From Lytechinus pictus (Eukaryota), in NCBI RefSeq assembly GCF_037042905.1, contig NC_087252.1:3660001-3724000 (forward strand): a DNA stretch of 64,000 nt, written 5' to 3'. The position numbers and the translations under genes were made by a program. This document shows positions 1,810 through 64,000 of this stretch, piece after piece. Within the stretch, counting starts at the first letter, position 1. Every line of letters begins with the position of its first letter. The notes below the pieces were generated by a model. The model worked only from the letters and a program-made list of their open reading frames with translations, made no database searches and was not told the DNA's origin.

Positions 1810-3077
1810 ATGATAATGAGATAAAAATAATGAAAATGAAGTATACATAAATCAATGTGCCAGGCTCTTTAGAGCATGGCCGTATACAGAATTTCTTTCG
1901 GAGGAGGGGGGGGGGGAAGCAGACGCGTAAACTTTCTCAAGTTGAAAGCGACACAGCGAAGCGACCAAGCTTGTCATTTGGGCACTTTTTGGAGTTTTAA
2001 AAGTGAAATACGAAGGCTTTCGTGCACACTTTTGGTGAATTTTGTGATAATTTTCAATAGAAAATAAGTTTTTAAAAACTTAGGGGTCATCATGCCCCCG
2101 TATTGTCGATGCGAGCATTTTGGGGCCAGGGTGAAATCGCCCCAAACGCCTCAAACAGACACTCCAAAATGTATTTGAAGTGCATTATTAGAACTGAAAC
2201 TTATCTCTACACCAGGAAAAATTAACTTAACAAAAAAAGCAACAAGAAATATTTATAAAAAGTAGAAGGGCCTGTACAAGTACACTGATATTGCACTCTC
2301 TCAGCTCATATGCACTTGATCGACTTCCATCGAGGATTCGGGCTAAATTCCGCCCGCCACTTCCGGGGACCAACCAACGTAGTATTTCGATGAAGAGCAC
2401 TCCGTCGATTCACCGGTTGTCCCTACGATACACGCGCGCCTATGGGGATTGTGAACTGTAGGAAAAATCGTATAAAATTACACTTTTTGATATTTCTACG
2501 AAGACGAAGTTATATAGAAATGAAGAATATTACAATCAGACCATATCCCTAGAAAATTGCTTCAAGAAATGTCATTATGAAGAGGAAATGGACAAAAATT
2601 TGTGAAGAAAAATCACGAAAAAGGAAATCGCATCATGAATATTCATATCATGGGCGGTCCCACATTTGCATGTTATAGCGAGTTTTCCATTATTTAATAA
2701 ATAATGGCATTATTTAATAAATAATGGCATTATTTAATAAATAATGGCATTATTTAATAAATAATGGTTATTTGTATATAAATAATGATTATTTGTATAT
2801 AATGGCAAACTGTAAAAATTGTTTATAAATAATGATTATTTATAAATAATGGGATATTGAAACAAACTTATTATTTATAAATAATGAAGTAGATATTTCA
2901 TTATTTAACAAATAATCTTTATTTATAAATAATGGAAAACTCGAACATTAAATAATGATTATTTATAAATAATGAGAATAATGGTGCACTCGAAAAAATT
3001 ATTTATAAATAATGAAGTAGACGTTTTCATTATTTAACAAATAATCATTATTTATAAATAATGGAAAACTCAACAAA

Positions 3078-5662: not shown

Positions 5663-5931
5663 TTAATTTGATATATAATTCTTTATTTTTATGATTTTCA
5701 ATATATTTCTACTTTAAAAAAGAGGTAGAGCGTAGAAGAATAACCAAGTACGAAAATATGCATTTATTTGGTAGACAGTGGCAAAGGAAGAAAGTGAGAA
5801 GTGGGGGAGTTGAGAGTCGAGGGGTCTGGAAAAAATAAATGCAAATTAACGAAACAAAATGGTTTGATTTTGCCAATTAAAGATTTTAGCCACCCCCCCC
5901 CCCCCCCTCGATTCCACTAAGGCACACGCAC

Positions 5932-8900
5932 CTGTCCAAACACTTCCTGATCAGTGAGTGGCGCCCTCTTGCCCAGACTGTTGTTGGTGTGATAATGGAC
6001 ATCGTGATGCTTATCTAAATCAGCATGGATGTCATCCTCGTCTTCCTCTACAGGGGTGCTAGCTTTGTCATCTTTGTTTTCCTTCTGGGCATCAAGTAAC
6101 AGTTGCAGGAAATCTACCCTCTGTGTTTTGAATCGTGAAAAGAAAAGATTCATTCATATATTTCATTTCATCTTTATTTTACAAGCCAATCAAAATAGGC
6201 TGACAAAAATAACACAAATGCAACATAACATTTCAATGATCATGTGCATAAAGACGTAGCAGCTAATCACCGATATGATAAATAGATAAATATCAAAATA
6301 AACTAAACATCACTGTAGAAAACAATACAATTGTATTCTAAAATGCAAAGCTTGTGGGGCACACCTAGAGGTTGAAAGGCCTGCAGGCAGGGCAGCCTGA
6401 AATAAGAAAAGACAGCAATTAAAGAGAAGAACATAGGGATGGAGCTCTAGACTGAAATAAAAAGATAGTCATTAATGATGTTGCATGAATCTTACGTTCA
6501 ATGTACGTCCCTATATCATGAGTAATTTTGCTTTGCAAGAAAGTTAGATGCAGTTGATCGAAAATCAACAACAAATTTTAGTTTGATGAAAGGGAATTGC
6601 GCTATATTTGGAATTGAATGTATATTTCTTGCAACGCCCAAATATTCATTGCCAATATTGTAATTATAGATGTCGTCATCATTTGCCACCAGCATTAATA
6701 GGATTCATCACGTCATCACTATCACCATAATCAACACCAGATTCATCAGTACCTTCATCATCGACATCTCCTTTATCATTCTCCTAGTCGTCATCGTAAC
6801 CATCACAATCATATCATAAGGTACCTCAACTCAGTGTTCGGCCATAATAGCCTGTTTTCCCATCACCATCATCAAACAGCTTCAAAACAGAAAGGCAAGG
6901 GATATACCTTAGAATTTGCATCAGGCGTTGCCTGTCTCCTTATGCTGACAACCTTCTTGTTAATGTCCTTGAAGAAGTCAAGCACATCGACAGGGATCAA
7001 AGTTGCGATCCTAAAACGGGCCATCAGTCTTCCCAGAGGAGGAATAAGACCTTACAACGTAAATAGGAAAAAGAATCATAACATTCTGAAGGTGACGTTG
7101 TAGCTGGAATGCAGGGGATAGCAAAACGTATGGTGATCGATTCTCCAAGTCTTAAACAATTTGGTGTCAGGCGGGAGAGCGATTTATCACCATTGCTATT
7201 CATATAATCAGCTGTTGTTGTTTTTTATATAAACAGTTGCACAATAATAATAATATAAATACAGTATCCGCACCACTGCTGGTCAAAGTGCTAACCTACG
7301 GTATATGTTGTCTTAACGGTTTTCGAACTCTGAATTTTTATAAAACATTTACCTCTTTGGATACATTAACAAGTTAAAATACTTTCACATATATTATTCT
7401 TGTGGGACACATTATACCTCCTATGATAAAGAGTGGGTTCTTGAAGTCAAATGAGAAGGCTCTTTTCGCGTTCTTCACAAATGGGTTATCAGGATCGGAC
7501 TGTGAGTCGATGTCAAGACCAAATGCGCAGCTTCCAACAGTGTCCATGACGAAAGATCCAAAAAGTCTGCAAGAAAATAAGTACATCTCATGAAGAAACC
7601 CAATAATATCATGAGCACCCCCCCCCCCCCAACCATGCCAACCTCCCCGTTCCCATTTGTTTCACGCTCAATTTGTTTATTGTCAATTCACAGGAGTGGA
7701 CATTGGTCATCTTCAGAATTCAAATTTGAAGAACATTTTAGTCTTGGTAGAGAATAAGGCGTTCCTGGAAATGAGTCAATACCTAGCATTAACATGTACG
7801 TTATATGTATCCTAAAGTATTTCAGAATTCTATCGAACCGAAATATACTGAGAATGCCATTTTCTGCAATATTTTCGACGATTTTAGTTGGATTATGAAA
7901 ACTCACTGTTGACATTCGATGCATCCCTTTTCTTTCTGTTGGTTGCCGATGTGTTTAACCAAGAAATCAGCGTTGGCGTTTATGAGACTTGACATCTAGG
8001 AATCAAGAAGAAAAAAGAAACTAAACGAATAAAGGTTTGAATGTCAAATTACAAATTTATGTTCGTATGTGGGTCTCCCTCTACTGAATGCTGAAGACCT
8101 AGCCCAGGGTAGAACTGAATGGAAAAGGATCACCCGTAGGAGAGCAAAGGGACACACCGTCCTATGCACCTAAGTCATGTAAGTCAGTCAAGTAAGTCAG
8201 TGGCACGTGCTTGGTAACGTAGTACACAGTGCAACAGACACTGAGATAGTACAGGGTGTAAAGTAATATAAACAAAGATAGAAAACAAGCACTGCAAAAT
8301 ACCGGTATTAACTTAACACTATCTCGGTATTTATATAGAAAAAACACCAGATAAGTGTTGAAAGGGCACAACATCGGCTTTAGGATAACACCAGATAGGC
8401 ATTTCAACAATACCAATCAGTGATAAACCAATATCGGTTTGACTCTTAACTTGTGTTGTTTCAACACTTCCCTGTTTTTTCCGATATAGATACCAGACTG
8501 GTGTTAAATTAACACCAGCGTTTTAGCGTTGTGGCTTTTCCTCATGATTCCAGTTAATCATAATAATGAAAAACCGCTTTTTTGTTATGTATTCTTCAGT
8601 CGTCGGCCTACAAATTGAACAGAATACCACCTTTGGTTTGATGTAAAGATATTTACGTGATATCATTTCCACAAATAAGAAAACCTATCCTTATCGACCA
8701 CATTCTTATTTCCTCTTCGTCTACATATAACTTTTTAATTGTGTCAACTTAAAAAATTGATTCTTTAACAGTTCATCTCATCATGTCAATTAAGTTTTGC
8801 TACACCAAGTTGATAAGACGTATTTATAATGAGTAAGCCATACTAGGCCGACTGGAAATAAGACGAACTGGTTGGTCAATCCTTTAGTAAACGAGCTGGT

Positions 8901-11900
8901 TAAAAGTAGGATTAAGTCACATGGGTTGAGACCAATGAGAGAGTAGAAGAAGGGTGTTTAGATAATGAGCAATTTACCAAGTCTTAATATCTCACCTGTT
9001 TCATCTTTGCTGCACTGAATGTTGGTGTAAGAATGTTCCTCACTTCCCTCCATCGCTGGCCTTCCAATATAGACACCATACTTCTTAGATCCTCGTAATT
9101 AGCTTGTGGTAGTTCCTAATGGGAAATGATTGAACCCATTAATTAAAATCCTCACTTAAAGTCCATAATTGATTGCGAATCAATAAATCCCCTTTTTTCT
9201 ACAGTATTATGACGACAGAAGGCAACTATCCATGCCCCCACCCCCTGTGTGAAATATACGACTATTCCTTTTCCTGAATTCTGAATAGTCACTTATAATT
9301 TAAGTGATGACAAGCCTCTCTTTTTGCCTAGGATTTCATTGTAGGTTCTACTGATTACCCCTTGTTTATTCCCTCCCTTGTGGTTCATTTATCACTTCAT
9401 CTTTCTTACTTGCGACGCGAGCTTTCTAGGAAATCAATATTATTAAAACAAAACATGAAAAGATTAAATATAATAAGTTTGTTTGGCAATAATAAATCGA
9501 AGCAAAGCTTGTAAAAAAACATTAGGCTAATATACCATTGGCACAAACTTAAGTATACAAGTATGTGAAACGCTACGAAACGGGATAAATGATCGTGACC
9601 AAAAAAAAAGAGAAAAAAGAAACGGGAGGAGAGAATGATAAGCAAAAATAAGAATGTATTTTAAAACTCTCCAGTGATTTTAAGTGTGTATGTTTTAAAA
9701 TAGTTTGGAAACTTACTGGTCTGCTGTGGAAGTTATTAAAGTTCTTCACAGTGATAAATCGCAGCATCTCAGGATCTCCAATGACGATGACAGGGGTGCG
9801 AAAAGAGAACAAACTGAGAGATAACAAGAAATTTAAAAGAAAAAGAATAGTAATAATAATGTTAACAATATAGTGATGTAGAGTGAAAAACGTTGCGTTA
9901 AATCGCAGCATCTCAGGATCTCCAATGACGATAACCGGGGTGCGAAAAGAGAACAAACTTAGAGATAACAAGAAATTTAAAAGAAAAAGAATAGTAATAA
10001 TAATGTTAACAATATAGTGAGGTAGAGTGAAAAACGTTGCGTTGAATGGCGTGTATAAAGGACTACGTCTTTCATGTAAATTTTTGGCTTTAGTTCAACC
10101 TCTTTAGATATAACTTTTACTCTCTTTTTGAGAAGGGGGGGGGTAGAGATCACAGATATGGCATATACAGGCCCTATAGGCCAAACATTCATCTTGGAAA
10201 AAAAATAATCATAGTACTTACCCATACACTCGTCCATGCCTTTTCTCCATGTTTATGAAAGCCTGAACAGCGCCCTGTTTACGGGGAAAATAGATGTGTT
10301 ATGGGGGTTAAAATATACACATTCAATATGTGTACTCCGTTATATATTTTTCATTGATGGCCGAGTGCAGCTGATGCTATTCTGGCATGATGATGCACCA
10401 GATGGCCATACGGAACTAGAATGTAGTCAAGTTTTACTATTAGTTGCTAATTGGAACACAGTGTGTTCCCAGTGTGTCGGCAGTGTGTTCAATGTGTGTT
10501 TGCAGTGCGTTTGCAGTGTGCTCACAGCGTGGTTCCAGCGTGTTCACGGTGTGTTTTCAGTGTGTTTATATTGTGTTCACAGTGCGTTCCCAGTGTGTTC
10601 ACTGTGTGTTCTCAGTGTGTTCAATGTGTGTTCCCCAGTGTGTTCAATGTGTGTTTGCCCTATGTTCGTAGTGTGTTCCCAGTGTGTTCACAGTGTGGAA
10701 CAATGTGAAAAGCAATATGAATTCATCTTTGCAATGTAAAAATACTCAAATTAAACACTTTGAATTTATTCGTTTACATATACCATCAACTCTTACACAT
10801 AGGCCTATTATCATAAATATGATATAATAACATGGCCTATATACTCACGTCAGCAAATACTTTTGCATTTGCCATGATGGGAGAGGGTGGCTCGTATGGG
10901 ATTCCTCTACGCTTCCAGTAAGTGTGTGCCCAGTAGTCATAGCTGAATATAAAAAAAATAGCGTTGAAATACATTATTTTCCTATTATTCCTTTCTTAGG
11001 GGAAACCCCGCCTTTTTCATCTATTCTAGTCATTGCGTAGTGTGGATATGATTGCATCGGCCAAAACTTCTGATATTAATATCATTTTTATCATTATTAT
11101 TAGTATCATTATCATCATCATTAGTAGTAGTAGTACTACTAATTTTGTGCAAAAAGCTACCAAGGGCTTTGCCCCAGACCCCACGCAGTAGGGTCTCTTC
11201 ATCTACAGGCCTAACATTCAAATGGCTCTATATAATGCCCCTCTGTAGGGACCCTTCCTACATTAAGCTTTTCGTTCAATCACTGGCGTACATGCGTGGG
11301 GGTCTTGGTTCCACACCCAAGGGGAAATAAAAGAAATTATAGGAGACAATGTAATGAAACGAATGGAAACAATGAAATGTGTTATTTGCTGAATATAATG
11401 GAAAAATCTATCACATAATTAGAATTTAATTTCAATTGACAATTAATTTTTCTTCCAGCTCGCTTTGCTCGCTGGCAACTTTTTACAAATTTTCCCATAT
11501 CGCTATGTTTTGCCCCCTCAGAATATTTGGTTCATTACGCAACTGGGTTGAATAAATATGTTGTGTAAAAGCTATATCCTGTATATACCCGCTATTAGAT
11601 TAAAAATAGCGGCAATCTGTGAGGTTTAAATGGCTTTGATATCAAGAAGTTCCGGGGGCTCCGCCCAGGACCCCAACCGCAAAGCACTACCGTATATGAG
11701 TATGGAAGGGTTGGGCCATGGCCCCAAAAAGTTCTGCAAACAAGAAAAAAAAGAGGAAAGAAAAGCAAAGGAAAAGTGTAGGACTATAATTTTATTCACT
11801 GAATATAATGTCAAAAAATATCTCAAAGTTAGATTCTCATGAAAATATGATTTTTTTTCTCGCTCGCTTCGCTCGCTCGGGATTTATATTCAGTAGCTTC

Positions 11901-17450: not shown

Positions 17451-18289
17451 AGCTCTGGAATAAGATCCCCAGCTTCTATCTTATGCATTTCAATTATACG
17501 CAGAGAGTATAGTATCATATCAGTTGTGGTTGCCAGTAAACCTAAACAGATATCACATATCTCCATCCATGCATGATCTCATATAGCAGTCCTATAGTGT
17601 TGTCAGATTGAGTTGGGACTGTGATTCAGAATTCAATTGACACTACGGATCTTGACCTATACACCAAGGCAACAACAGGGCATGAACAATTAGGACTGCA
17701 AGAAATTGACACTGATTCCGTAAGTATACGTTAGTATTTTTGTCTAACAACATATTTCCGCGGTTGTGGTCTGAAGAGCGGATCAGCGCAAAGTCGAGGC
17801 AGAGCCAAATTATCGTTTGTTTGAAAAAATTAAAAACAAAAATCCACCCTAATAGTATATAGGACTAGACCTACTGACGGGACTAGTCTGCATGATCGTT
17901 CTTGTTATATGATGGGGTGTCCAAATTTCGCGGACTTTTCAAAAAAAATTCTTCAGGCTTAAATTTGTTCACAAAATATTCACAATTTGTACGGTATCAA
18001 CTTTGAACACAGCGGAACAACATCTTGCATTATTTACTAGGACTGTAGACCCGATTTGTGTGAGACAGAAGGTGTTGGTCCATTTGCTTTATTACAATGT
18101 CCCCATATTAATGTATTTAATAGTGGTGTCAATTTTGTCATATATACCGTACTCTCATAGCACAAAGATCATTTTAAAAAGAATCAGAATTAGGTCTAGA
18201 TATAATGTCAATGATACTATAGAAAATACAGTCATAATTGTGATAATGAGAGATATAATCCAAATGATGATGAATTTATGAGAAGTGTA

Positions 18290-18562: not shown

Positions 18563-18742
18563 GACATGGTTTTGATTCCCTCTTGGTTCCCCAAAATGAT
18601 TATTTTATTGAAAAATATAATTTATGTCAGCTATCCTCATTATTGTACTTGTTGCTTATATCCAATCATCTCCAGTTTCATTCCATTATTTTTTATTATT
18701 ATTCCAGAAACAGCCTTCATCGGAGCAGGATCATATTCCAAC

Positions 18743-21420
18743 ATGTCTTTCTCAAAATCTGCCAAACCCAGTAACAAAGATGTCAGGCTTCGACGACCCG
18801 TCCAGAATGAAGAGGACTTTGAAACGGTCTTCCATGAAGTAGCTGGAGATCTTCTACAAAATGGGCCCGGGACTGCTAGGGTCGTTTCAAGCCCCCCTGT
18901 ACTATCTGAAAAGTATGCTTGAAGTTAAGAAGATTTCTTTTTTCAATTGAGAATAATAACTTTATTTGTTGTTGGAATTTCAAAAATATAACTTCAACAA
19001 AGATTGAAAATGTATACCGGTATATCACGGTGACTGGTCTAATGTATTCCTAAAAGTATTTAGGATTTTTGTGAATATGAGAACACTTGTTTGCACTGAT
19101 GGTAAATTCTTGATGGGGGCATGAAAATACAGAAAGTCACTGGTATTCTAGCCAATAGATCTTGCCATCAGCATTAGGATATGCTATGTGTTGTTAATGC
19201 TGTACTAAGGGGAAGTGTACCAGGGGTCTGGGAAGGATTTTGTTAGAGGTGGTGCTTTTCACTTCCAAATAAAGATATTTTTTGTAAAAATCAATTTAAA
19301 AAAAAAGGGGTTCACTCCAATAAAATGAAGGTGATTTTTGTCAAAACCCTCCCCCCAAAAGGATATGACTCTCGCCTACATTAAGTGGTAAACGAAAGCT
19401 AATAATTATGGCATACCAACCTAATTTCCAGGGGCAGCTGTTCACCTCCAGGAATTTTTAATTTTTTTCCACCCCGACTCCCAAGGCGGGTGCTGCGGAA
19501 TTTCTCTTGAAAGCAGCGACATGCTGTACAAATTGGGCAAATGCATGCTCTTGTGTTAACCATCATGTATAAATAGGGTTCTAAAATTGGGAGTCGAAAC
19601 GAGCACAAGAAAATGCCTCGATCCTCCCCCTAGTCTGCACGCATAGACCCTGAGTAAAAATTTGATCAACAAATGTGTTAATTTCCACGCACTCAAAGAC
19701 TAGCACATGTATACAAAACTTGCTGTTGCAATTCCCTGAGCGAGAGGGTCTTCAGTACACAAGGCATGAGTAGGCTGCAATTCAGACCCTTTACTCGAGT
19801 GAAGGGTTTGCACGGCAGACTATCCCCCCCCCCCCCCCCCCCCCGAAGGCTCTCCATCAAAATATCATGGAAGCACCCCTGTAAGAGGGAGTGTTTACCT
19901 GGTTTCCATCTCATAAAGACTTGTTAGAATAAAAAATGCACAAATTCTTTAACAAGTTTAGTCAGCCAGTTAGATTGATGGATTTCACTAGCTTTTAATT
20001 GTTATTTCAAATTTGTTATCTAAACAAGTTTTAATTTAAACCAGCCACTGATCTTGCTTGACTCCTACTTTTGCAGAACTCGCCGGGATCTACGCGAGAT
20101 GAGGACGAATTTCAGCCAGCAATACGGACCTCAAATTCTAAGGATGGCCGAGGAGTGTCGAGCAGCAATGAGAGCTGGTCATCGACGAGTGCTGCAGTTC
20201 TTCTCTGAAGTTACACGAGAGTAAGATTTATTTTAGTCTATACTAGGAAAACCAATGTAAGCTCCCCCTCCCCATTGGTGAAAAATATTCAAATGATGAC
20301 AATGATTAAAAATAAAAGCATTTGATATAATTAATAAAACAAAAACGAAGGGGTGAATATTGTTTTCAATGTATATGATGATGATGATGATGATGATGAT
20401 GCACAGCATTTGTATAGCGCCATGTATCTGTCAAAGACATTCAAAGGTGCATTGGAGGAGCCAGCCAATCTGGGTCGCCTACAAGGGCGCGCACACAGAA
20501 CTGTGACCCACAGGTCTCTCCTCCCGATAACTGGGGGAATGCAGGTGGACCACTACACCGGGGTTTCCCCCTACTCTTATTCGAATAGTGAGTGGGTTCT
20601 TAACGTGCAAAGGTGGTGATTCTCCTCTACACGGGGCCTCCATTTAACGTCCTATCCGAGGGACGGAGTGTTTTCCACTGTAACATAGCCTGCATCTATG
20701 AAACATGGGAGAGACGTTTACACACAACGCACTGGCTTCAGTCATCCGCCCGGGGTGGACTCGAACCCACGATCTTTGGTTCGACGGGCAGACGCGTTAC
20801 CGACTGAGCCAACTTCGCTCTCTATATAGCAATTTAATTGTAAAATTCATTGGTCCTTAGACCTATGAGTAGTTTATTTGACAAAAAAAAATAACGTGAG
20901 CACAATTAATATCTTTTGGATAATTGTATAATTTCTATATTGAAATTAAAATGATATACATCTAATGATCCAAATGCATTAATGAATGATGAATATAACG
21001 ATTAATGAATGAATTATTGAATAAATGAATAAAATAACTAAAATAAGTGTAATACTTGAGCGATTGGAAAATTGATTAATCAAATAACTAATTAACTCAT
21101 TGACGGATTTATTAATTAGCTCTTGAATGGGTGGGTGACTGAAATGAGAGAAACATACATGAATAATAAACTAATAATATTGCACAGAAATAGATTTTGT
21201 GAAATGTTGGTAATCTACATGTATGCACAAGATCCCATTTTTACCTCTTTTTTCACCCTTCTTCTTCAGTTGTTTAGCTGATGGATATTCCTGGAGTGCA
21301 GTATTCTTCCTTATATTCCTGGTTCTAGCAATCTTAGCGACTGTGGGATTCGGAATGCTAGCATCTGGTGTGGTTCCGATTATTTGGCGTGCAGTCCGTG
21401 GTTTTATAACAGCACAATAA
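18743..21420 (+). CDS. Divergent, truncated Bcl-2-family (Bak/Bax-like) protein, 154 aa; possibly a young pseudogene
   Basis: Exons 18743-18912 (acceptor at 18707/18708), 20077-20220 and 21270-21420 join in frame through two phase-2 GT-AG introns. Product contains EEDFETVFHEV (helix-1-like), RRDLREMRTNFSQQYGPQILRM (BH3-like) and FFSEVTRDCLADGYSWSAVFFLIF (BH1-like). Family assignment by eye. Confidence 0.65.
20376..20820 (-). mobile_element. tRNA-derived SINE (family 3), near full length, with (CAT)n tail
   Basis: Minus-strand head ttggctcagtcggt...ggttcgagtcc; near-identical 3' parts at 48905-49183 (-) and 43255-43350 (+). Confidence 0.8.
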
Positions 21421-23255
21421 ATTGTTATTACAGCAGTATTGTGAAGTATGGAAACTTAAGGTAAAGTTTGCACCAACAAAAGGTTAATTTCAATAAAAAT
21501 AGAATAAATGTTTTAAAAAGTCACAAAAGCTCAACATTGAAAATTTCATCAATATTGGAACACATGTGTGCAAAATAATAATAATTATGCAATTGTAAAT
21601 GACTGCACTTCCTGGATTAAAATAGGCATTGTTACTTGATTTATTATGCAAGTTTTATATTTGGGCAAAAAAAATACTATTCATCTGAAGGGAGGGAGAG
21701 AAGGGCAGGAGAGAGAGAGCATCAGAGAGAAGGGAGTGTAAGAGGGGGAAACAGAGCCAGAGAGGAAAGGAGATAATCACCGGAAACTAGCAAGGATATT
21801 GTTTGTGGAAGAATTTGGTGATCTCATGTTTTCACCTCTGTGCTTTTTGGAAATATCAGTGATGACAAGAACATTAGTTAGTCATATTTTGGTGATGTCA
21901 ATATTGTGAAAAATTAATTAGCTGTGTATATTTTGTCATTAATGTGATATTTTGTATATCATTCGTAAACATTAACTCAGATGTCGACGTCAAATTTTGA
22001 TTCAATCTCCACCGAATGTGATTATTATTTCATCGTTTATGTAAATGTCACTTGAAAAATGTATATACATACATAAGTATATGTATTAATTTCTTCAGGG
22101 ATATCTTTCACAAGTCAAAACAATGACTACTACAGGATACGATTGTCTTCCAGTATATTATGTCTATGTGCAAGATAATATCATCCTTCTAAAAAGAAGA
22201 CCACTCCTCCAATATCACATAACCATCCCCCCACTTATTTGCCATGCTAACCCATTAGCTTGAATACAGGGTTCTAATTCATAGCATTGAAGGCCCTGAC
22301 TTGGACATGTACATACTAATTGAATCAATACAGGTTACTTGATTGTTATGTGTTTATGTTATCTGAATCTTCATTGTATATAAATATATATATATATATT
22401 ATACCAAATTGAAAGTTGAAATGAATTAATTGAATTGAATTAAACTCAAGCTGTGTTTGTGCTAGAGTTGTCACCAAACCGTCTTCTTGATTACACTTTC
22501 AATTGGAGTCTTTGCCTGTAGACTATCCCACATCTGCTAAATCCAAAATGTGATTTCAATCATGGTGCTACTTTGCTAAATACTGCAGTAATTCGATTGG
22601 GAAAGGGGCAGGGCCATGGGAACAATTTTTTTACTGGGGGTGCTGATGTAAATTTGACAAGGGGGGGTCACTAAAGAATGAAGGTCATTTTTGTTACATT
22701 TATCCATTTTTTAAACACCTACCAGAATTCAAGGAGGTACTGCCTATGGAAAGTAATACACACAGCACCCCCTTTTTCCCAGGTTCATGGAAAGGGGATC
22801 AAATATGTTAATTTAACTCTTGATGTGCCATTCGCTGTAATCAGGGAGTGTCATATTTTTTTCAGAGTCTATATTTAATTGTTTTATTAATGAAAAAAGG
22901 GAATCACTCCTGAGACCATAAAGTTAAACCTCTTGACCATAAGCTGAACTGACCAATGGAATCACTCATGCATGCAATGCACTCCTCAAAATTCAATAGG
23001 CATAACAATAGCTGTATGACCATTGCACGAAAATGTGTTTGTGGCACTCCAGTGGATGCACAGATATGTGTTCACGGCACTTTAAGGGTTAAGAAATATT
23101 TTTCCCACAGCTACTACATGTATATATAATGCAATTACCAGATAATTAAATTGTACACTGCAAGACAGACGACTGTTTTATCTACTTTCCATTTGGTCTC
23201 GTCTCACATGGCCTAATCCTAGTTCATCTACAACCAGTTGGTCTTTCAACCATGT

Positions 23256-26640: not shown

Positions 26641-52589
<25,949 letters not shown>

Positions 52590-60826: not shown

Positions 60827-63484
60827 CTACTCTGGGGGTATAATATGGTTCGATCTTCTATTAACTTTCATAAGTTTGACAAATTTGGTCCAGAAGTACT
60901 CCTGCTCTTGTTCGTTTTTCGACCAAGTGAGGTAGGTCCCATGGTCACTGAGGAAGAGCCTTACCAAGAACGGCAGCTCCGCATCAGGGATATCCTCTAG
61001 GAAAACCACCACCATGTTCTCAATTTGGGACTCATTGACGTTATCTAAAGCTATCCGGAACTTAACCAGGAACCAGTTGTTCCGGAAAGCATTTCTGCTT
61101 AACAGCAAAACAATTTTATAACTCCGCTCGACGATGTAGTGGACCGAATCTAAATAGTGCATGCCGATGATGAGATCCTCATCGCCATAAATGTTTCTGT
61201 TGAGGTCAGGTAGTTTCTCTTCTATGAGTGGTTTGAAGTGGTCCTTCATCCACTGGTCATCCTCATCGTCGCACATGACGTTGATGTCGTACGTGAATTC
61301 GTCGTGACCACGAGCATCCTCCATCTCGTCGTACCCCAGGATGGCGAGCTTTAGGAGGAAAATTTTGTATTTCAAAGCCCATCGGTTACTGTACATCATC
61401 AAGGCAATCATGATTACTCCAATCCCAGTCAGAACGAGCAGGCTGATGAGAGTTGTGTTGGGGCTGCAGAACTCATCAGGTTGGAAAGTCAACAGGGGCT
61501 TTTGTTTTAGAGGATCAAGAGACGCAGATGAGCAGTAGGTTTGATCAGCGTTTATGAGATGGATATCTCCATTAAGCCATTCGACCATCCACCTGATCTT
61601 ACAAGAACAAACTATCGGATTATTAACAAGGGATATTGCTGTCAGGGTGGACATGACTGGATCGAACGAGCTGGAATTGAAGGCTGTTAGATCGTTGTTG
61701 GTCAGGGTGAGCGTAGTCAGCAGAGGGATTTCTGTGAAGGCATCCTTGGAGAAATAGCTAAGGTGGTTATCATCGACATGCAGAGCAAGAAGGTTTGTTA
61801 AACCTTGGAGAAGATCAGACGAAAGATGTGTCAGATAATTCTGCTGCAAATGCAGTTCCTTCAGGGATCTCAGATCGGAAAACAATCCCATTTCAAGGAA
61901 TGGAATTTCGCATTTAACCACAGAGAGTTTTTGTAAGGAAGTCAGGTTTGAAAATACAAATACCGGAAAACCACCTAGAGGGTTGTTGTCGAGGAACAGA
62001 GCGCGAAGATATGCCAAGCCACTAAAGAGGGACAAATTCCTTGATGAATCCCATAAACTGTTGACTAACATTATAGATCCCGTCATGTCAATAAACTCGA
62101 GCAATGGTGCAGTTTTGAAAGTTTCACCTGGTATGAATGAGTCATCCCCAAAATAAGGCACCCGTTGTCGAATATTAAAAGATGTCAGGAGAGGTGCCCA
62201 TAGTAACATTTCAAGTAGTTTACAGCCCGGCACATCAAGTATCTTTAATTTTTCAAGCCCGTCAAAAGCTCCAATTTCAAGAGAAGATAGATATTCGTTG
62301 TTGGACAAGTCTAAGAGCACCAAGGTATTCAAACCACTGAAACTAAAGGAAGCTATGTGAATGAGACTATTATCAAGTAAATATAACTCATGTAAATTTA
62401 TCTCCCAGGTCGAGTTTTTCGGGTTGATGGTTTGAACTTCATTATATCCAAGGTCGAGAATCCTCAGTTCTTTCATTCCTGCAAAGTGTTCTGGCTCTAT
62501 CTCACGGATGTAATTGCCACTCAGACTTAGCCGATAGAGAGTGGTTAGGTTTGAGAATATGGAATGGTTCAATGAAATGAAGTCGTTAAAAGATAGGTCA
62601 AGACTGAAGAGAGAGGCATTAGAGAGGGGACTGAATAAATCTGGAATGATGGCGTCCAAGCCACTTCCAATGATCGAAATTTCCTTGATGCTGGAGATCG
62701 CCGCACCTTGGAACAACTGCGTCAACACCGCATTGGTCGTAGGGAAGGCACCTACGACCAGGTTCTGGGCATTTAATGGCGCGATGGCTGCAGGATCAAT
62801 GGACGTGATCGGGTTCTGCATATCAATAGTGTCCATAGGACACAGGATGACAAATGTCTCAGGGGTTATACTTTCAATTCCATTGTAACCGATATTAAGA
62901 TCAGGCAGTACGAGGTCGCTGCAAATTGTTACGTTGACCGATGCGAGATTGTTGTAGCTCATATCGAGGTTTAGAAACTTGGATGATATCCCCAAAACTT
63001 CGTCTGGAAGCGATGTGAAATTGCAACCATTAAGTAAAAGAAGTTCCAGTTGGTGAAGCCATTGTAAATAATGGATCGATGATAAACTTGGGTTGTCACT
63101 TAGATCAAGGGTGGCCAGGTTCTCGAGTGGTTTGAATGCCTCAGGTTGAATTGTAGTGATGTCATTCTTTGAGAGATCAAGGAAGAGAAGGGCTGTGTAT
63201 CTGATGAAAGACACATTCCTAAGACTACGGATGTTGTTCAGGGACAGATCAAGACGGAGCGCATCGGTTGGCAAATCATCAGGAATTTTAGCGAGACCCC
63301 TTTGCCTGCAACCGGCCCTCTTAGCAATAACATCGAAGTCGCACTTTTCCGAAGTGAAAGCCCGTAAGATCCGAGTAGACGTCGGATCATTTTCAGGTGC
63401 CTTCCTCGTCATCATCTCGTATCGACGACTGGTGACTCGAAGAACGAACACTAAAAACCAGCAAAGACGGATCAGACAAGCCAT
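60827..63484 (-). CDS. Toll-like receptor, intronless, single-cysteine-cluster type, 885 aa
   Basis: Signal peptide, LRR-NT, many LxxLxLxxN repeats, LRR-CT (NNPIVCSC...C...C), TM (LISLLVLTGIGVIMIALMMY) and a C-terminal TIR domain (YDINV...LLLSRN...W...FW). Confidence 0.97.
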   Translation of the reverse strand: MACLIRLCWFLVFVLRVTSRRYEMMTRKAPENDPTSTRILRAFTSEKCDFDVIAKRAGCRQRGLAKIPDDLPTDALRLDLSLNNIRSLRNVSFIRYTALLFLDLSKNDITTIQPEAFKPLENLATLDLSDNPSLSSIHYLQWLHQLELLLLNGCNFTSLPDEVLGISSKFLNLDMSYNNLASVNVTICSDLVLPDLNIGYNGIESITPETFVILCPMDTIDMQNPITSIDPAAIAPLNAQNLVVGAFPTTNAVLTQLFQGAAISSIKEISIIGSGLDAIIPDLFSPLSNASLFSLDLSFNDFISLNHSIFSNLTTLYRLSLSGNYIREIEPEHFAGMKELRILDLGYNEVQTINPKNSTWEINLHELYLLDNSLIHIASFSFSGLNTLVLLDLSNNEYLSSLEIGAFDGLEKLKILDVPGCKLLEMLLWAPLLTSFNIRQRVPYFGDDSFIPGETFKTAPLLEFIDMTGSIMLVNSLWDSSRNLSLFSGLAYLRALFLDNNPLGGFPVFVFSNLTSLQKLSVVKCEIPFLEMGLFSDLRSLKELHLQQNYLTHLSSDLLQGLTNLLALHVDDNHLSYFSKDAFTEIPLLTTLTLTNNDLTAFNSSSFDPVMSTLTAISLVNNPIVCSCKIRWMVEWLNGDIHLINADQTYCSSASLDPLKQKPLLTFQPDEFCSPNTTLISLLVLTGIGVIMIALMMYSNRWALKYKIFLLKLAILGYDEMEDARGHDEFTYDINVMCDDEDDQWMKDHFKPLIEEKLPDLNRNIYGDEDLIIGMHYLDSVHYIVERSYKIVLLLSRNAFRNNWFLVKFRIALDNVNESQIENMVVVFLEDIPDAELPFLVRLFLSDHGTYLTWSKNEQEQEYFWTKFVKLMKVNRRSNHIIPPE

Positions 63485-64000
63485 TCCTTATCTGCGGTTT
63501 ATAATTGACCCCTGTATACGAGACTATATGGAAATGGAAATGGAAAGGATTACAGTTTAAAAGAATGGCAATAACAGCTTTCGAAAAGTTCCTTAAACAG
63601 TTTTGATGATGTCATATCAAGGGCGGATCGAGGCTTGAGCATGGGAAGTGCACGCCTTGGGGAGGAGGAAATAAGGTTAGGAAAATCAGCTGTTGAAAGC
63701 AGAAGTAATGGTACGAATTTCGTTTTTCTTGCCAGTGTCGGAACTCCTCTGCCTCAGCGGGAGGGTACACGTACGTGCACCCCCCCCCCCAGCCTACACC
63801 CTTGGAATTCATCAAAGATGGGGCACAGTCATTTTTCCCTTGAAATTTCTAACAAAAATACACGATAAAAAATGTATTTGCTATATAGAGATGCACTTTT
63901 TAAGGTTCGATGGATCTAAATTTGGTCGAAACCACAGCGAGCACCACTACCCCCCCCCCATAGCAGCACCCATGCACCCCTAGTGTTGGTGTATGACATT

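Follow-up and report, generated by a model that had tools for sequence, protein, structure and literature searches.

The gene LOC129266890 of the sea urchin Lytechinus pictus lies on the + strand of a stretch of DNA of 64,000 nucleotides (contig NC_087252.1, positions 3,660,001 to 3,724,000, RefSeq assembly GCF_037042905.1), referred to here as the window. It is a real, spliced and expressed gene with a 154-amino acid product. We tentatively propose, at slightly less than an even chance, that this product is a Bcl-2-fold protein, most likely a duplicate of Bak cut down to helices 1-6, and that it acts as a membrane adaptor anchored by helix 5 rather than as a pore controlled through the Bcl-2 homology 3 (BH3) motif.

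The coding exons occupy window positions 18743-18912 (170 nt, starting with the ATG at 18743), 20077-20220 (144 nt) and 21270-21420; both coding introns have GT..AG boundaries and are in phase 2, and the 465-nt join encodes 154 amino acids. This structure was first proposed from the letters of the DNA alone (hereafter, the sequence-only reading) and is confirmed by the exact join and by RNA: the joints 18912>20077 and 20220>21270, which that reading had named as a check, were seen in 7 of 8 runs from three studies. Both were present in all four runs of the first set (raw reads X9 and X10, contigs X1 and X5) and in three of the four of the second (X2, X4 and X6), with run X11 showing nearly no exon coverage within the 6% of its reads examined. 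Raw-read support per joint is thin, at 1-3 reads (3 and 1 in X9, 3 and 3 in X10); contigs from X1, X2, X4 and X5 each span all three joints of the transcript in one piece. The first mates of the joint reads fall on the - strand, which, as holds for most stranded libraries, implies RNA of the + strand.

The remaining joint, 17719>18708 (GT..AG; X10, X1, X5, X2, X4 and X6), adds a non-coding first exon. Given that in-frame stops lie upstream of the ATG, this intron is in the 5' untranslated region (UTR) and has no coding phase, so that the parallel drawn earlier with a phase-1 upstream intron of human BAK1 falls away. Transcript contigs also continue unspliced beyond 21460, where the range first given stops, to at least 22369 (Table 1). 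The donor-like site found there, 191 nt into exon 3 compared to 178 for the BH2 intron of Bak, is used in none of the joints listed for the 8 runs, and the contigs run through it; it may be a relic of the BH2 intron or a chance occurrence. The description of the gene as hidden was also incorrect: its product is identical, letter for letter, to RefSeq XP_054760637.1/XP_063959443.1 (P0004), annotated as "uncharacterized protein LOC129266890" of L. pictus. Genome searches found no second copy in L. pictus, so that the gene is single-copy as far as these searches see. Its neighbours, a P450 gene on one side and COPA on the other, are encoded on the opposite strand.

Four of the five full-length homologues match the Pfam Bcl-2 profile (PF00452) with E-values of 2.6e-4 to 8.3e-4 and scores of 20.3-21.9 bits. 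The match spans only profile positions 1 to 59/64 of 100, that is, the part containing BH3, BH1 and helix 5, and single exons gave no Bcl-2 match in Pfam. A template-free model built from the five homologues (predicted local distance difference test score, pLDDT, 58) retrieved Bcl-2 family structures in all 38 rows listed by Foldseek, with BAK first and in 9 of the top 10 (best E-value 0.07). In VIA-align, ranks 1-34 all have the Bcl-2 fold (Z 10.7, root-mean-square deviation 3.0 over 124 residues) and the first unrelated row follows at Z 5.5; the matches cover 105-132 residues and include the short viral proteins N1, A52 and A49. A second model, led by the diverged paralogue P0007 from Strongylocentrotus purpuratus, again produced only Bcl-2 family rows in Foldseek (39 of 39 listed, BAK first, E-value 0.026), but it is not independent of the first because it was built on the same five sequences.

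Several points weigh against a Bcl-2 fold. The PF00452 scores of 20-22 bits are under the curated cut-off of 31.4, and P0007 has no match at all; pLDDT is only 57-58; the best Foldseek E-values are 0.03-0.07, with no row at E<=0.001; and, by the tool's own warning, VIA-align Z scores under 13 may reflect a common helical arrangement. A sequence search of the PDB returned only the mTOR FRB domain and an annexin, at E-values of 0.2 or worse, which we treated as chance matches. The single fold results are not strong, but sequence, fold and gene structure agree, and we consider the Bcl-2 fold supported. The sequence-only reading holds on this point through a sub-threshold Pfam match and two low-confidence models with top structural matches that all have the Bcl-2 fold; of the checks that it named, Foldseek came out in its favor in all listed rows and the Pfam score stayed under the cut-off.

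In the model, helix 1 (residues 23-40) is followed by a loop, helices 2-4 (56-107), helix 5 (113-135) and helix 6 (139-151). The BH3 region retains the inward-facing hydrophobic residues L62, M65 and F69, and its Gly-Asp is replaced by R66-T67. Among the five homologues, the corresponding sequence is LREMRT in three, LRQMRT in one and LSKMQV in one, and the L-x-x-h-G-D pattern, where "h" is a hydrophobic residue, occurs in none; NWGR of BH1 is replaced by SWSA, SWSS or SWNG. Both partners of the salt bridge between the BH3 Asp and the BH1 Arg are therefore lost. In human BAK, this conserved bridge joins D83 and R127, and the D83A change is described as impairing autoactivation without abolishing killing (PMC8752837). 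The stop codon lies ~5 codons before the position of the first BH2 Trp, so that BH2 and helices 7-9 are missing, and no remnant of BH2 or of the tail was found downstream of the stop. The replacement of both motifs and the lack of BH2, as originally read from the sequence, are borne out by the homologues, by the absence of a BH2-like frame downstream and by the absence of any listed joint from 21460. By motif tests, LOC129266890 is outside the Bak effector class, because BH3, BH1, BH2 and the tail all fail; the loss of these motifs also suggests that the protein would neither bind partners nor be restrained through the groove.

An orthologue with 94% identity is present in Lytechinus variegatus, and S. 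purpuratus has two orthologues (76% and 75%) in addition to P0007 (38%); two further exon-1 fragments were matched in other assemblies. All homologues end at most 4 residues from the same point, so the truncation is common to three species. Neither the three word-index searches nor the full HMMER search found relatives outside Lytechinus and Strongylocentrotus, which does not by itself show their absence. The HMMER search, over 1.84 billion representatives, gave 4 matches at E<=0.001; the match P0008, a repeat-rich sulfatase, was dropped as spurious. The ESM Atlas yielded one match at 0.76 and otherwise nothing usable. The three S. purpuratus copies (P0002, P0005 and P0007/P0009) are each placed on a contig of equal length. 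P0007 has the same N-terminus and the same 2-residue gap as the other two, yet is only 38-43% identical to them, and therefore looks like a young, fast-evolving duplicate.

Differences between the genera are conservative in 24 of 37 and 24 of 38 cases for the two S. purpuratus orthologues, compared to a mean of 27% and a maximum of 56% in 2000 runs of a neutral simulation. Helices 1-4 are better conserved than helices 5-6 (78 of 90 vs 24 of 38 residues identical between the genera, p 0.004; 76 of 90 vs 24 of 38 for the other S. purpuratus copy, p 0.011). The predominance of conservative differences indicates that the truncated product is under purifying selection in two urchin genera. A transcribed, decaying Bak pseudogene, one of the possibilities raised by the sequence-only reading, would account for the loss of every signature motif, for the low expression in two of three studies and for the one fast-evolving copy in S. 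purpuratus (38% identity). However, the reading frame has stayed open in all three species, the orthologues keep the same truncation, and their differences are mostly conservative, beyond the range of the neutral simulation, so this is not a decaying copy. In addition, the five contig sets with coverage of the exons agree throughout the coding part but differ at several places in the 3' UTR, a weak point because contigs drop variants. We regard decay as extremely improbable and already close to refuted.

To place LOC129266890 within the family, its exon plan was compared with that of L. pictus Bak, in place of human BAK1. The L. pictus genome contains 12 Pfam Bcl-2 matches at 10 loci, of which 9 were modelled (L013 was omitted as a near copy of L012); the paralogue models were derived from splice signals, that of Bak without an RNA check, and the subfamily names are labels assigned here from motifs. 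The intact Bak gene lies on another contig (C19:5290794-5297960) and has coding exons of 197, 144 and 178 nt and a terminal exon. In both LOC129266890 and Bak, phase-2 introns are located 56 and 8 codons before the BH1 Trp. Neither position is found in the 5 other spliced models (Bax, L007, a Bok-like gene, L6 and L011), L002, L003 and L012 have open frames through their Bcl-2 matches, and the Bok-like genes either lack an intron there or have one in phase 1, 3 codons before the Trp. According to a review, sponge and Hydra have kept the gene structure of Bak (PMC8998228). Furthermore, Bak scored 11.5 bits against a profile of the LOC129266890 family, the best of 9 proteins and above all 500 shuffles (0/500). 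The 144-nt exon in phase 2/2 that the sequence-only reading described for human BAK1 is present in L. pictus Bak, but the register inside it is not the same: the first intron stands at -5 relative to the BH3 Leu in LOC129266890 and at -9 in Bak, so that the equal exon length requires a compensating 4-codon indel.

Bok, or an unrecognised Bcl-2 lineage, could alternatively be the ancestor, with the intron match to Bak being coincidental, and the protein trees speak for this option. Both Bok-like proteins score 8.1 bits against the family profile, also above all 500 shuffles (the other six paralogues score 0.6 bits or less). In these trees, which include paralogues from one genome only, the family is joined to the Bok-like genes by a very long stem (approximate likelihood-ratio support, SH-aLRT, of 96 in a quick tree), and a constraint to a Bak clade is only not rejected (approximately unbiased test, p-AU 0.20). 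In pairwise comparison, Bak is only weakly similar (z 2.7 and 1.0; hhalign probability 0.4), in VIA-align, Bcl-xL (Z 10.7) and BOK (10.1) rank above BAK (8.8, 13th), and the BH3 register is shifted as just described. However, with a stem of 2.7-4.1 changes per site, the tree placement is unreliable, and the introns of the Bok-like genes differ, whereas Bak agrees at two positions and in both phases. We therefore consider the Bak origin of LOC129266890 probable on account of the two intron positions shared only with L. pictus Bak, and an origin from Bok or an unrecognised lineage quite unlikely; the Bak identity first proposed agrees with the gene structure and is not favored over Bok by the protein tree. 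Bok ancestry is, in any case, a question separate from that of mechanism.

A gene encoding a BH3-like LRQLGD sequence followed by a ZU5 domain lies 1.1 Mb away on the same contig (C8:4859535 downwards; L027 and L028), with its first exons and ZU5 match confirmed. It was considered and rejected as a sister gene, given its intact LRQLGD, different exon plan and lack of a match to the family profile. There are 135 ZU5 matches on C6, C8, C9, C21 and C37, many in tandem clusters; on C21, the near-identical Bcl-2-like L012 and L013 recur together with ZU5 matches in opposite orientation, suggesting a segmental duplicate or a haplotype copy.

Helix 5 of the truncated protein is also altered. The 24 residues after the BH1 Trp include no charged residue, compared to 5 in Bak and 6 in Bax. 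The best 19-mer insertion score, a crude sum, ranges from -3.7 to -4.1 among the four close homologues, whereas helix 5 of 7 canonical proteins scores +4.2 to +10.3 and the tail of Bak itself scores -2.0. The Kyte-Doolittle average of a 19-mer reaches 2.7-3.0 at residues 115-135 in four of the five homologues and is weaker in P0007. About 17 residues follow this segment. The hydrophobic helix 5 noted in the initial analysis is accordingly upheld. The statement that there is no tail anchor is right in that the helix-9 tail of Bak is gone and probably wrong in effect, because helix 5 now scores as an anchor. The lower conservation of helices 5-6 relative to helices 1-4 is, at the sequence level, the pattern of a lipid-facing helix combined with a constrained soluble surface. 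Two observations oppose an anchor: P0007 scores poorly (+2.5), and both models bury helix 5 in a compact bundle, which excludes its permanent insertion in the modelled form, because such a bundle cannot coexist with an inserted helix.

Expression differs between studies. In contigs, the exons are covered at a depth of 88-144 in three runs from one study but of 3-7 in two runs from a second, and three raw runs have few or no reads on them; the tool itself warns that such depth is a poor expression measure. The S. purpuratus orthologue is listed in PMC13043383 as rising after ultraviolet B (UVB) irradiation in phagocytes, vibratile cells and red spherule cells, in at most 1% of cells. The bulk counts of LOC115921122 in coelomocytes given in the same source are all-or-none between samples, namely, 159, 0 and 0 in controls vs 87, 0 and 0 after UV at 0 h, and 1, 128 and 1 vs 5, 59 and 1 at 6 h. 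These coelomocyte data show expression in immune cells, not a role.

In the mechanism that we tentatively favor, the hydrophobic, C-terminal helix 5 would insert after synthesis, like a tail anchor, into the membrane of the endoplasmic reticulum (ER) or the mitochondrial outer membrane, replacing the lost helix 9. Helices 1-4 would remain cytosolic, and their surface, which is charged and strongly conserved, would be open to a partner from outside the BH3-groove network, with neither binding of BH3-only proteins nor the usual restraint by pro-survival proteins. Working at the surface of the ER or of mitochondria, the protein would then be an adaptor or modulator that tunes the handling of organelle stress without forming Bak-type dimers. 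There are precedents for Bcl-2-fold proteins that act independently of the groove (PMC7022251, PMC9800997).

One candidate group of partners is the Atg8 family. Proteins of this family are bound by LC3-interacting region (LIR) motifs, which consist of acidic residues followed by W/F/Y-x-x-L/I/V. Residues 24-29 (EDFETV) fit such a pattern, which is complete in three of the five homologues, has its core in four and is lost in P0007; the pattern also occurs in 10% of shuffles, and its spacing is the one to be expected within predicted helix 1, where it is located. PMC5302884 describes how, on activation of Bak, helix 1 is released while the core and helix 6 rest on the membrane, and the protein therefore resembles a pre-opened Bak. 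It might be a permanently opened Bak in which the pore-forming core helix has become the anchor and the acidic F-x-x-V of the freed helix 1 recruits Atg8, making it a receptor for organelle autophagy; we consider this improbable. If true, a death-pore gene would have been rebuilt as an autophagy receptor in sea urchins, independently of BCL2L13 and BNIP3. As a separate observation, a tandem pair of Atg8-family genes lies at C2:27489322-27517169 in the genome, together with a partial copy that is broken (L035, L036 and L045).

The anchored adaptor has to be weighed against two other mechanisms. The protein could be a BH3-independent killer, in which the helix 5-6 hairpin inserts into the mitochondrial outer membrane and permeabilises it as tBID does, under the control of expression or degradation instead of pro-survival binding. 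Low or patchy expression would suit such a protein, whereas an Arg at the position of the BH3 glycine should block the BH3-in-groove dimer. The Bak core (helices 2-5) and helix 6, which are the parts of activated Bak that embed in the membrane (PMC5302884), are kept; tBID is reported to need no BH3 Gly/Asp for killing, which it achieves by means of its counterpart of helix 5 (PMC8762556), and BAK D83A still kills at higher levels (PMC8752837). However, the tBID activity needs two lysines in that helix (PMC8762556), and helix 5 of LOC129266890 lacks any charge. Likewise, the UVB-associated rise of the S. purpuratus orthologue in three types of coelomocytes (PMC13043383, Table 8) would fit a killer but rests on 0.2-1% of cells at a probability of 0.95-0.97, and the bulk counts given there show no UV rise. 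On balance, we consider a killer unlikely. The other option is a soluble or peripheral Bcl-2 bundle with helix 5 buried and the outer surface binding signalling proteins, as in poxvirus A46, A52 and N1; the extra hydrophobicity of helix 5, perhaps together with dimerisation, would offset the lost helices 7-8. Both models are compact and match Bcl-2-fold structures, those of short viral proteins included, over 105-132 residues; viral Bcl-2-fold proteins modulate NF-kB without a groove (PMC7022251); and helix 5 of P0007 is less hydrophobic. Conversely, conservation should be highest in a core helix that is buried, whereas helices 5-6 form the less conserved half, and tail-anchor pathways would be expected, extrapolating from PMC5214336, to capture 24 uncharged residues near the C-terminus. 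We consider a soluble bundle unlikely.

Comparison with known systems shows what has been retained and what has been lost. N-Bak and other truncated splice forms are Bak-derived, end before BH2 and have a new hydrophobic C-terminus, but they arise by splicing, keep BH3 intact and have a shifted frame, whereas LOC129266890 is a separate gene that keeps the frame of helices 5-6 and has lost BH3. With BAK, LOC129266890 shares the predicted fold of helices 1-6, two phase-2 introns equally distant from the BH1 Trp, the hydrophobic positions of BH3, the QY following BH3 and the G-x-x-W of BH1. It differs from BAK in lacking BH2, helices 7-9 and the C-terminal tail, in the uncharged helix 5, in the replaced BH3 Gly-Asp and BH1 Gly-Arg, and in size (154 vs 209 amino acids), and identity is under 20%. 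Like tBID as described in PMC8762556, it combines a Bcl-2 fold with the loss of BH1/BH2 chemistry and of a helix-9 anchor, and its central helix could contact the membrane; BID, however, has a working BH3 and needs the lysines of its central helix, whereas here BH3 is degenerate, the helix is chargeless and no cleavage step is known.

The tail-anchored LIR receptors BCL2L13/BCL-RAMBO, BNIP3 and FKBP8 (PMC9800997) also have a C-terminal hydrophobic segment and an acidic F-x-x-V motif, although the tail after the anchor is 1-11 residues long in BCL2L13, BNIP3 and FKBP8, compared to ~17 in LOC129266890. Lack of binding to Bcl-2 and Bcl-xL is shown for BCL-RAMBO in the same source and is expected for LOC129266890, but BCL-RAMBO still possesses BH1-BH4 and carries its LIR in a region of its own, whereas the motif of LOC129266890 is part of predicted helix 1. 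L. pictus also seems to have a separate BCL2L13-like gene (L011, a label assigned here). The poxvirus proteins N1, A46, A52 and A49 (PMC7022251) similarly have a Bcl-2 fold with lost BH motifs and appear among the structural matches at Z 5.7-7.3; they are viral, soluble and unrelated in sequence, whereas LOC129266890 belongs to the host, contains introns and encodes a C-terminal half that is hydrophobic. By analogy, LOC129266890 would work most like a tail-anchored, groove-less Bcl-2-fold protein, with BCL2L13 and the poxvirus proteins as precedents.

Table 1. Features of LOC129266890 in the window
Feature	Position	Strand	Basis
Exon 0, non-coding 5' UTR with three short upstream ATG frames	17517..17719	+	RNA joint to 18708; the 5' end (17517) is the furthest contig end, not a mapped transcription start
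Exon 1: 35 nt of UTR and residues 1-56 (helix 1 and loop), ends in phase 2	18708..18912	+	RNA joints
Helix 1 (predicted), residues 23-40, at the BH4 position	18809..18862	+	Structure model
Exon 2, 144 nt, phase 2/2, helices 2-4	20077..20220	+	RNA joints
Degenerate BH3, residues 58-69	20078..20113	+	Alignment to L. pictus Bak
Exon 3: residues 105-154, stop codon 21418-21420, unspliced 3' UTR to at least 22369	21270..22369	+	Contigs
Degenerate BH1 (SWSA), residues 112-115	21289..21300	+	Alignment
Helix 5 region, residues 114-137, predicted membrane anchor	21295..21366	+	Charge, hydrophobicity
Helix 6, residues 139-151, amphipathic, net +2, final element	21370..21408	+	Structure model
Donor-like AAG/GTAAAG, 40 nt past the stop	21458..21466	+	Sequence

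Intron 2 contains a repeat (window positions 20410-20813) with more than 1000-fold read depth on one strand and a sharp end at 20813. Its head appears tRNA-like by eye, and ARAGORN and Rfam give no match to it. Probably, this is a transcribed short interspersed element (SINE), and the reads may stem from other copies. The cytochrome P450 exons (~5900-10100, - strand) are divergent from LOC129266890, and the frame at 9573-10094 contains a tandemly repeated piece of intron and exon. The coatomer alpha gene (COPA; ~26640-50330, - strand) is convergent with LOC129266890, its last coding exon ending near 26644. Farther away, the window carries an intronless gene for a Toll-like receptor (60827-63487, - strand, 886 amino acids, LRR and TIR domains) and mirror-image matches between ~330-1050 and 2330-3070, which point to a duplication in inverted orientation, at least 700 bases long.

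The five LOC identifiers of the family occur in none of the main texts searched, and no paper on the gene was found by title or start of abstract, with subscription papers and some supplements outside the reach of this search; the supplements of PMC10396339 contain none of the five identifiers. Because profile cut-offs and RefSeq names miss LOC129266890, counts of the sea urchin Bcl-2 family may be short. The reach of the finding seems narrow, with relatives found in three sea urchin species only. Within this range, LOC129266890 represents a natural experiment on Bak, in which helices 1-6 are kept and the latch end, the tail and the salt bridge between BH3 and the groove are removed. Testing it would show whether the Bak core and helix 6 can permeabilise membranes without BH3-in-groove chemistry or, alternatively, whether the buried core helix 5 can turn into an anchor. 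Either answer would bear on how Bcl-2-fold proteins gain groove-independent jobs.

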